Source: Escherichia coli
GTDB lineage: Bacteria; Pseudomonadota; Gammaproteobacteria; Enterobacterales; Enterobacteriaceae
NCBI RefSeq assembly: GCF_003334785.1
Contig: NZ_QOWV01000007.1
Strand: one strand, 5' to 3'
Length of the DNA stretch: 64,000 nucleotides
Shown: one piece after another, positions 38,872-39,684 of the stretch
Layout: every line of letters starts with the position of its first letter
Position numbering within the stretch: the first letter of the stretch is position 1
Translations under genes and position numbers: made by a program
Notes under the pieces: generated by a model
What the model was told of the DNA's origin: nothing
Databases searched by the model: none
What the model saw: only the letters and a program-made list of their open reading frames with translations

Positions 38872-39684
38872 ATGATTTCACGCCGCCGATTTTTGCAGGC
38901 TACTGCCGCGACGATAGCCACGAGCTCAGGTTTCGGTTATATGCATTACTGTGAGCCAGGCTGGTTTGAATTAATCCGTCACCGCCTCGCCTTTTTTAAA
39001 GACAACGCAGCACCATTCAAAATTCTTTTTCTGGCCGATCTCCATTACTCTCGTTTTGTTCCTTTAAGCCTGATTTCTGACGCGATTGCTCTTGGCATAG
39101 AACAAAAGCCCGATTTGATATTACTGGGCGGCGATTACGTATTATTTGATATGTCGCTGAATTTTTCGGCGTTTAGTGACGTACTCTCCCCCCTTGCCGA
39201 ATGTGCGCCGACGTTTGCCTGCTTCGGCAACCACGATCGCCCTGTTGGTACAGAAAAAAATCACTTAATTGGCGAGACGTTGAAATCAGCGGGCATCACG
39301 GTGTTGTTTAACCAGGCTACGGTGATCGCCACGCCGAACAGGCAATTCGAACTGGTAGGCACTGGTGACTTATGGGCCGGACAATGCAAACCGCCTCCCG
39401 CCAGCGAAGCCAATCTGCCAAGACTGGTGCTGGCGCATAATCCCGACAGCAAAGAAGTCATGCGTGATGAACCCTGGGATCTGATGCTGTGCGGCCATAC
39501 TCACGGCGGGCAACTGCGCGTACCGTTGGTTGGTGAACCTTTTGCCCCTGTCGAAGATAAACGTTACGTCGCCGGATTAAATGCCTTTGGCGAAAGACAC
39601 ATCTACACAACCCGTGGCGTGGGCAGTTTGTATGGTTTGCGTCTGAACTGCCGCCCGGAAGTAACGATGCTGGAACTGGTGTAG
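38872..39684 (+). CDS. yaeI: Metallophosphoesterase with twin-arginine (Tat) signal peptide
   Basis: 270-aa ORF; N-terminus MISRRRFLQATAATIATSSGFG; calcineurin-like motifs LADLHY, GGDYV, GNHD. Confidence 0.9.
   Translation: MISRRRFLQATAATIATSSGFGYMHYCEPGWFELIRHRLAFFKDNAAPFKILFLADLHYSRFVPLSLISDAIALGIEQKPDLILLGGDYVLFDMSLNFSAFSDVLSPLAECAPTFACFGNHDRPVGTEKNHLIGETLKSAGITVLFNQATVIATPNRQFELVGTGDLWAGQCKPPPASEANLPRLVLAHNPDSKEVMRDEPWDLMLCGHTHGGQLRVPLVGEPFAPVEDKRYVAGLNAFGERHIYTTRGVGSLYGLRLNCRPEVTMLELV

Follow-up and report, generated by a model that had tools for sequence, protein, structure and literature searches.

Bacillus subtilis YkuE and Escherichia coli YaeI belong to the same short single-domain family, in which an N-terminal RR signal stands directly before the metallophosphoesterase domain. 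YkuE is reportedly Tat-dependent and cell-wall-associated, and its binding of Mn and Zn is said to have been demonstrated; Tat dependence and metal binding are thus experimental in YkuE and predicted in YaeI. YkuE comes from a Gram-positive bacterium and ends bound to the cell wall, whereas YaeI would end in the periplasm. According to Tooke et al. 2017 (PMC5449189), who aligned the short E. coli homologue with YkuE, YkuE is proven to be a Tat substrate and its signal can be cleaved. The same authors also described YkuE-like variants with four transmembrane spans, the last of which follows the RR motif (PMC5449189). Sec and Tat cooperate in inserting these polytopic enzymes. Their catalytic domain is the same as in YaeI, and an RR pair stands just before the segment that leads into this domain. 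However, they contain four transmembrane segments, of which the RR-preceded one stays in the membrane, whereas YaeI has the RR segment only and this segment is far less hydrophobic.

By profile (NF033458), the closest characterised enzyme to YaeI is LpxG of Chlamydia trachomatis, which is likewise a calcineurin-like phosphoesterase. LpxG is Mn2+-dependent (PMC4807358). LpxG works on the cytoplasmic side and carries a transmembrane helix at its N-terminus, where YaeI carries a Tat signal. The two proteins also differ in motif II, which reads GDxxDR in LpxG (PMC4807358) and GDYVLF, without the Asp-Arg pair, in YaeI. Further away stand GpdQ, Rv0805, Mre11/SbcD and UshA/CD73. The fold and the binuclear metal site are common to them and YaeI, but identity between YaeI and GpdQ, Rv0805, Mre11 or UshA/CD73 is only 11-17%, with TM-scores of 0.44-0.54.

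Identity of the gene and its neighbourhood

We analyzed yaeI in a window of E. coli DNA, that is the whole stretch of 64,000 nucleotides studied here (NCBI RefSeq assembly GCF_003334785.1, contig NZ_QOWV01000007.1). The open reading frame begins MISRRRFLQATAATIATSSG and encodes a product of 270 amino acids. Its ATG is the first start codon past an in-frame stop, therefore no longer N-terminus is possible. Positions 38700-39900 of the window were 100% identical at the DNA level to MG1655 and to many other strains. The same frame in MG1655 (NC_000913.3) is b0164, yaeI, annotated as 'phosphodiesterase YaeI'. Further, the product matched the NCBIfam equivalog of this name, NF008460, with 531.3 bits (curated cut-off 188 bits), residues 1-270 falling on model positions 2-271. 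The preliminary description had named the gene yaeI and its product a calcineurin-like phosphoesterase, and the identity to b0164, the NF008460 score and the Pfam domain reported below back this assignment. yaeI is thus an already catalogued K-12 gene, for which a Tat-type signal, the enzyme class and diesterase activity in vitro are on record. The coordinates of the features are collected in Table 1.

Table 1. Features of the yaeI region, numbered from the first nucleotide of the window.
Feature	Coordinates	Strand	Basis
glnD	35291-37963	+	ORF list
dapD CDS (tetrahydrodipicolinate N-succinyltransferase), upstream of yaeI	37994..38818	+	ORF and annotation
dapD intrinsic terminator	38830..38858	+	terminator scan, RNA fold, conservation
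Allele-specific segment, ~841 bp (distal T-run, Shine-Dalgarno sequence, all of yaeI)	38854..39694	+	alignment, BLAST junctions, genome counts
Shine-Dalgarno AGGGA, 6 nt before ATG	38861..38865	+	sequence; conserved in seven yaeI-positive loci
yaeI CDS (270 codons and TAG, intact)	38872..39684	+	ORF list, annotation, NF008460
Tat-type signal region, codons 1-22 (RR codons 38881-38886)	38872..38937	+	borderline HMMs, conservation, hydropathy
Metallophosphoesterase catalytic domain, residues 49-212	39016..39507	+	Pfam PF00149, invariant columns, AlphaFold2
3' remnant of gene X, 30 nt	39697..39726	+	comparison with X-bearing loci
yaeH (DUF3461), downstream of yaeI	39846..40232	+	ORF and sequence match

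The order on the + strand is glnD, dapD, yaeI and yaeH, and these are followed by cdaR and degP on the - strand. An RpoD holoenzyme site has been listed between yaeI and yaeH (Shimada 2014, PMC3946193), and yaeH is apparently served by this RNA polymerase site of its own. Outside Enterobacteriaceae we found no recurrent gene neighbourhood at the three loci examined. At one of these, the locus of a verrucomicrobial homologue, a PF01663 phosphodiesterase adjoins the gene.

Transcription of yaeI and the dapD terminator

The stop codon of dapD (38816-38818) is followed by an intrinsic terminator, composed of an 8-bp stem with seven G-C pairs and a 5-nt loop (38830-38850), then one A and seven T residues (38851-38858). 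In the RNA fold of the 66-nt segment 38815-38880 (MFE -20 kcal/mol) the hairpin was present in both the MFE and the centroid structures. According to the preliminary description, the terminator ends about 12 bp before the start codon and leaves almost no space for a promoter. We measured 13 nt between the T-run and the ATG of yaeI (38859-38871), with the AGGGA included in them, which agrees with both statements.

The hairpin, the T-run, the AGGGA and the spacing to the ATG were conserved in seven yaeI-positive loci. This layout was common to E. albertii, E. whittamii, Escherichia sp. MOD1-EC7003, two divergent E. coli and one assembly labelled Salmonella enterica. In the last of these we observed two compensatory changes of stem pairs (C-G to T-A and G-C to A-T), which indicate that the terminator hairpin is under selection. 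A search for RNA families at the terminator and in the allele lacking yaeI (see below) returned only a sub-threshold match of the hairpin to sroE (21 bits, gathering score 51).

It had been proposed that yaeI depends on read-through or on an internal promoter. We scanned positions 37900-40300 for sigma-70 promoters and found no match of at least 9/12 inside the body or the 3' end of dapD; the sole match in this interval (37988-38016) lay at the start of dapD. The best result of a sigma-E motif scan of 37900-38880 was 6/11, which is background level. Since no sigma-70 or sigma-E consensus promoter was detected in dapD, read-through of the terminator appears to be the likeliest source of yaeI mRNA. 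The reasoning behind the proposal was therefore sound, and of its two options read-through is favoured, as the scans of dapD gave no consensus promoter. The terminator looks strong (8-bp G-C-rich stem and T7), and read-through may be very low. In Superficieibacter electus a homologous hairpin is present without a T-run, which is consistent with an ancestral co-transcript of dapD and yaeI.

Alternatively, yaeI could be driven by a promoter of its own, of sigma-70 or sigma-E type, within the 3' part of dapD. We consider this unlikely, although not negligibly so. The apparent efficiency of the dapD terminator speaks for such a promoter, but a transcript begun inside dapD must still pass the same terminator, and both scans described above argue against it. 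yaeI has also been counted in the rpoE regulon; the list in the source cited for this claim reportedly does not contain yaeI. The claim itself, in which yaeI stands among 'known rpoE regulon genes' (PMC5105897), would favour an own promoter, but another yae/yea gene may have been meant. As only a background match was found in 37900-38880, we regarded sigma-E control of yaeI as unsupported.

Distribution of yaeI among E. coli genomes

yaeI was present in 2080 of 5426 complete E. coli genomes and is missing from approximately 60%. In 3339 of the 5426 its place is taken by an unannotated segment of approximately 117 bp, and the two alleles together cover essentially all of these genomes. The alleles share their sequence up to and including GCTGCCCGATT; divergence begins at 38854, within the T-run of the terminator. 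On the right side homology resumes near 39695, approximately 10 nt past the yaeI stop codon. The ~117-bp filler showed no detectable similarity to yaeI or to gene X (described below) beyond a shared 3' remnant of X. The filler has itself diverged, as 1000 genomes carry it at 90-95% identity, and hence it is not a recent scar. A repeat or IS scar was ruled out, since the filler is single-copy.

Gene X, of 244 codons, lies between yaeI and yaeH in Escherichia sp. MOD1-EC7003 and in the S. enterica-labelled assembly; it was also found in one of the 5426 complete E. coli genomes. We obtained no match for gene X in Pfam, NCBIfam or PADLOC, and the PADLOC search for defence systems gave no match for YaeI either. 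The remnant of gene X in the window reads ATC ACC AGA ATA AAG CAG GTA ATT TTT TGA (ITRIKQVIF and stop). The allele without yaeI retains approximately 20 nt more of gene X than the window does. It follows from these differing remnants that each of the two E. coli alleles goes back to a deletion of its own in an ancestor with the order dapD-yaeI-X-yaeH.

yaeI occupies the interval between dapD and yaeH also in other Escherichia species, in Superficieibacter (65% identity) and in the one S. enterica-labelled assembly. Its presence in the same interval in relatives indicates that it is an old resident and not a recent import. No signature of horizontal transfer was seen, the GC content of yaeI (51.5%; GC3 53.3%) being close to that of its neighbours. 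The dN/dS ratio was 0.10-0.15 for yaeI versus 0-0.02 for dapD and yaeH, and these values indicate that yaeI is under purifying but relaxed selection. In a pan-genome study yaeI was an orthologous group enriched in phylogroup A. In summary, yaeI is dispensable in nature: it is ancient in the dapD-yaeH interval of Enterobacteriaceae and has been lost from most E. coli at the frequency given above.

Metallophosphoesterase domain and predicted fold

YaeI matched Pfam PF00149 (Metallophos) with an i-Evalue of 7.2e-13 over the residues given in Table 1, which correspond to model positions 1-190 of 191. The three motifs named in the preliminary description were all in place, namely LADLHY at residues 54-59 (with D56 and H58), GGDYV at 86-90 (with D88) and GNHD at 119-122. 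In addition to these, we recognized two further ligand motifs, AHNP (H189) and GHTHGG at 208-213 (H209 and H211). We aligned YaeI with 55 homologues of 43-92% identity. D56, H58, G87, D88, G119, N120, H121, D122, H189 and H211 were invariant in this alignment and H209 was kept in at least 90% of the 55 sequences. The metal-ligand motifs, whose loss on alignment would have spoken against the assignment, are therefore retained.

The AlphaFold2 model built from the same alignment (pLDDT 93.8, pTM 0.90) consists of a long N-terminal helix, residues 4-30, and then the metallophosphoesterase beta-sandwich. The helix is continuous and runs into a conserved Y-x-H/R-x-x-E-P-x-W segment. Foldseek matched the model to Mre11, GpdQ, CD73/UshA and Rv0805 with probability 1.0, and a search of the PDB by sequence gave no entry at E<=0.01. 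In the AlphaFold database the protein belongs to a large family, mostly named 'phosphodiesterase YaeI' or 'YkuE', and neighbours of the model under the latter name had a TM-score of 0.88. On the basis of the conserved motifs and the predicted structure, YaeI (b0164) is assigned as a binuclear metallophosphoesterase of the YkuE/YaeI family.

The twin-arginine signal

The N-terminal segment S3-R4-R5-R6-F7-L8-Q9 fits the consensus S/T-R-R-x-F-L-K at S, R, R, F and L, with the final K missing. Conservation is the strongest sign that this segment is of importance. R4 and R5 were invariant in all 55 aligned homologues, down to 43% identity. We further applied to the full-length database relatives a strict test, which asked for 12 or more uncharged residues after RR. 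It was passed by 94 out of 109; the remaining 15 had either S/T-RR-x-F-L-K/R, which the strict rule rejects, or N-terminally truncated gene calls. Among the database relatives the spacing between RR and the catalytic Asp was fixed at 48-56 residues. In YaeI the uncharged stretch F7-C27 comprises 21 residues. RefSeq names the N-terminal fragment of an IS1-split copy 'twin-arginine translocation signal domain-containing protein'.

The Tat-signal profiles gave borderline results (TIGR01409, 16.5 bits with a cut-off of 16.7; Pfam PF10518 TAT_signal, E=0.0039, 17.5 bits). No canonical A-x-A cleavage site was found in the N-terminal region of YaeI, and there were seven small-x-small candidate sites after residues 14-22. 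The h-region of the K-12 protein (ATAATIATSSG) ranked lowest in hydrophobicity among the 55 family members, with a maximum of 0.85 on the Kyte-Doolittle scale over 13 residues, versus a median of 1.65 for the set. Within the first 60 residues the 19-residue windows all stayed at or below 0.96, a value of 1.6 over 19 residues being typical of membrane spans. The signal had been called a textbook twin-arginine signal. The RR motif is real and conserved, but given the borderline profiles, the missing A-x-A site and the polar h-region the word 'textbook' goes too far.

Among the open-access papers searched, none paired YaeI with 'twin-arginine'. The YaeI leader is reportedly among the E. coli leaders which export a reporter via Tat. 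That YaeI is folded, metal-loaded and periplasmic, as stated in the preliminary description, is a prediction from the type of its signal. Possession of a metal centre does not by itself commit a protein to Tat, because UshA and CpdB, which are periplasmic metallophosphoesterases, reach the periplasm via Sec. An h-region as polar as that of YaeI speaks against export via Sec and also against stable anchoring in the membrane.

The signal might nevertheless stay uncleaved and serve as a weak N-terminal tether. YaeI would then be held at the inner membrane and be active on its periplasmic side, with the tether resembling the final membrane span of the polytopic YkuE-like enzymes. We consider this improbable. 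It would fit the lack of an A-x-A site, the constant spacing from RR to Y-x-R-x-x-E-P-x-W and the single helix of the AlphaFold2 model. The polytopic relatives keep the RR-preceded TMD4 as a membrane span (PMC5449189), and LpxG is anchored by its N-terminal helix (PMC4807358). However, the hydropathy values given above lie well below those of a membrane span, and the seven small-x-small sites offer places for cleavage. Further, the short homologue YkuE was reported to have a cleavable signal, and short variants were described as soluble (PMC5449189).

According to another possibility, the signal has decayed in K-12, YaeI stays mostly unexported, being cytoplasmic or degraded, and the gene is heading for loss. 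We regard this as very unlikely. Since the K-12 h-region is the weakest of the 55 homologues, export of this allele could indeed be inefficient. The absence of yaeI from so many E. coli strains and its rate of evolution, approximately ten times higher than that of its neighbours, point in the same direction, as do truncated variants and the IS1-interrupted copy. On the other hand, the dN/dS of yaeI still reflects purifying selection, neither the RR motif nor any catalytic residue has been lost, and the leader is reportedly functional with a Tat reporter. Tat export, probably with cleavage of the signal, is our preferred reading of the N-terminus.

Substrate and relation to LpxG

The substrate had been presented as unknown. 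This holds for the physiological substrate only: YaeI is reportedly active on the model diester bis-pNPP, and 'phosphodiesterase with model substrate bis-pNPP' occurs as a database name.

E. coli relies on LpxH, and the presence of yaeI in K-12 does not make LpxH dispensable. That YaeI is an enzyme of the lipid A pathway, an LpxG-like UDP-2,3-diacylglucosamine pyrophosphatase as some database annotation implies, is hardly credible and was rejected, because its partial match to NF033458 (121.8 bits, best stretch residues 133-269 only) is far under the curated cut-off of 350 bits, the protein has no transmembrane helix, UDP-diacylglucosamine is made and consumed on the cytoplasmic side while YaeI bears an export signal that would place it on the wrong side of the membrane, and most E. 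coli do without the gene. In a T7 INSeq paper yaeI insertions were enriched under T7 selection, and the paper repeats the 'lipid A biosynthesis' annotation of yaeI. On the same grounds of score, topology and membrane side we consider this annotation unsupported; the enrichment itself is a weak lead to a role in the envelope.

Discussion

We think it probable that the main elements described above hold together, that is, that YaeI is a binuclear metallophosphoesterase of the YkuE/YaeI family, equipped with a Tat signal, transcribed by read-through from dapD and encoded by a dispensable gene. In this scheme yaeI would have no promoter of its own, and its mRNA would come from dapD transcripts reading through the strong terminator 13 nt upstream. 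Such read-through would give low expression of yaeI, coupled to that of dapD. The protein would fold in the cytoplasm and take up two metal ions there, probably Mn2+, perhaps with Zn2+. In this way a Mn site could be filled ahead of contact with periplasmic Zn or Cu. The Tat translocase would then carry the folded YaeI across the inner membrane, and the signal peptide would probably be cut at one of several small-x-small sites, at residues 17-22. In the periplasm YaeI would hydrolyse a phosphodiester or pyrophosphate substrate.

With regard to that substrate, we also considered YaeI as a periplasm-facing counterpart of LpxG, a pyrophosphatase or phosphodiesterase, Mn-loaded and Tat-exported, trimming a lipid- or nucleotide-linked diphosphate in the envelope, e.g. 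on LPS or its carriers. We put this forward as a long shot. If true, such an enzyme would alter the cell surface, and this might account for the enrichment of yaeI insertions when cells were selected with T7. It might also be the reason why both ancient alleles, yaeI and the 117-bp filler, have persisted.

For the biology of E. coli, these results mean that the amount of transcript leaking past the dapD terminator probably governs expression of yaeI, as the gene lacks space for a promoter of its own. The unusually polar signal peptide of the K-12 allele bears on any study of yaeI. Finally, the natural absence of the gene from approximately 60% of E. coli strains provides ready-made knock-out comparisons.

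Presence and absence of yaeI in E. coli

We found that the yaeI locus (window 38854-39694) is a two-allele presence/absence polymorphism. The gene was present in 2080 of the 5426 complete E. coli genomes, while in 3339 of these 5426 it was replaced by a segment of approximately 117 bp, which is single-copy, unannotated and unrelated to yaeI. The left junction lies within the T-run of the dapD terminator, and therefore the U-tract is degraded in the yaeI-less allele (GATTGCTTTCT).

We also observed an interrupted copy. In E. coli strain 1506 (NZ_CP059288.1) yaeI is split by an IS1X2-family element, and its N-terminal fragment bears the RefSeq name 'twin-arginine translocation signal domain-containing protein'.

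Neighbouring genes

An intact 244-codon gene was located between yaeI and yaeH only in Escherichia sp. MOD1-EC7003 (L007), one S. enterica-labelled assembly (L039) and E. coli GF43; searches of Pfam, NCBIfam and PADLOC gave zero matches for it. A short remnant of this gene is retained in the window.

Coordinates of the features adjoining yaeI and of the 244-codon gene in comparison loci
Feature	Location	Strand	Remarks
Remnant of the 244-codon gene	window 39697-39726		30 nt, reads ITRIKQVIF*
Terminator-like hairpin between convergent yaeH and cdaR	window 40234-40256	-	terminator scan
244-codon gene	L007 3811-4656
244-codon gene	L039 4822-5556

In a Verrucomicrobiota contig (L043 2555-3955) we noted, as a single instance, that the gene directly upstream of a YaeI homologue encodes a type I phosphodiesterase / nucleotide pyrophosphatase (PF01663). 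No conserved gene neighbourhood around YaeI homologues was observed across the other non-enteric loci examined.

Signal peptide and cysteines of YaeI

The h-region of the K-12 type, ATAATIATSSG (YaeI residues 7-20, window 38872-38937), had the lowest hydrophobicity among the 55 family representatives. Its value was 0.85, whereas other Escherichia alleles were clearly higher (1.0-1.9). Conserved cysteines were identified at C117, C172, C207 and C260 (43, 36, 47 and 54 of the 55 family sequences, respectively).

Possible origin of the dapD terminator

In Superficieibacter electus the dapD-yaeI spacer (L041 3944-4000) contains a hairpin without a T-run. This suggests that the Escherichia dapD terminator was derived from a non-terminating stem-loop inside a dapD-yaeI co-transcript.
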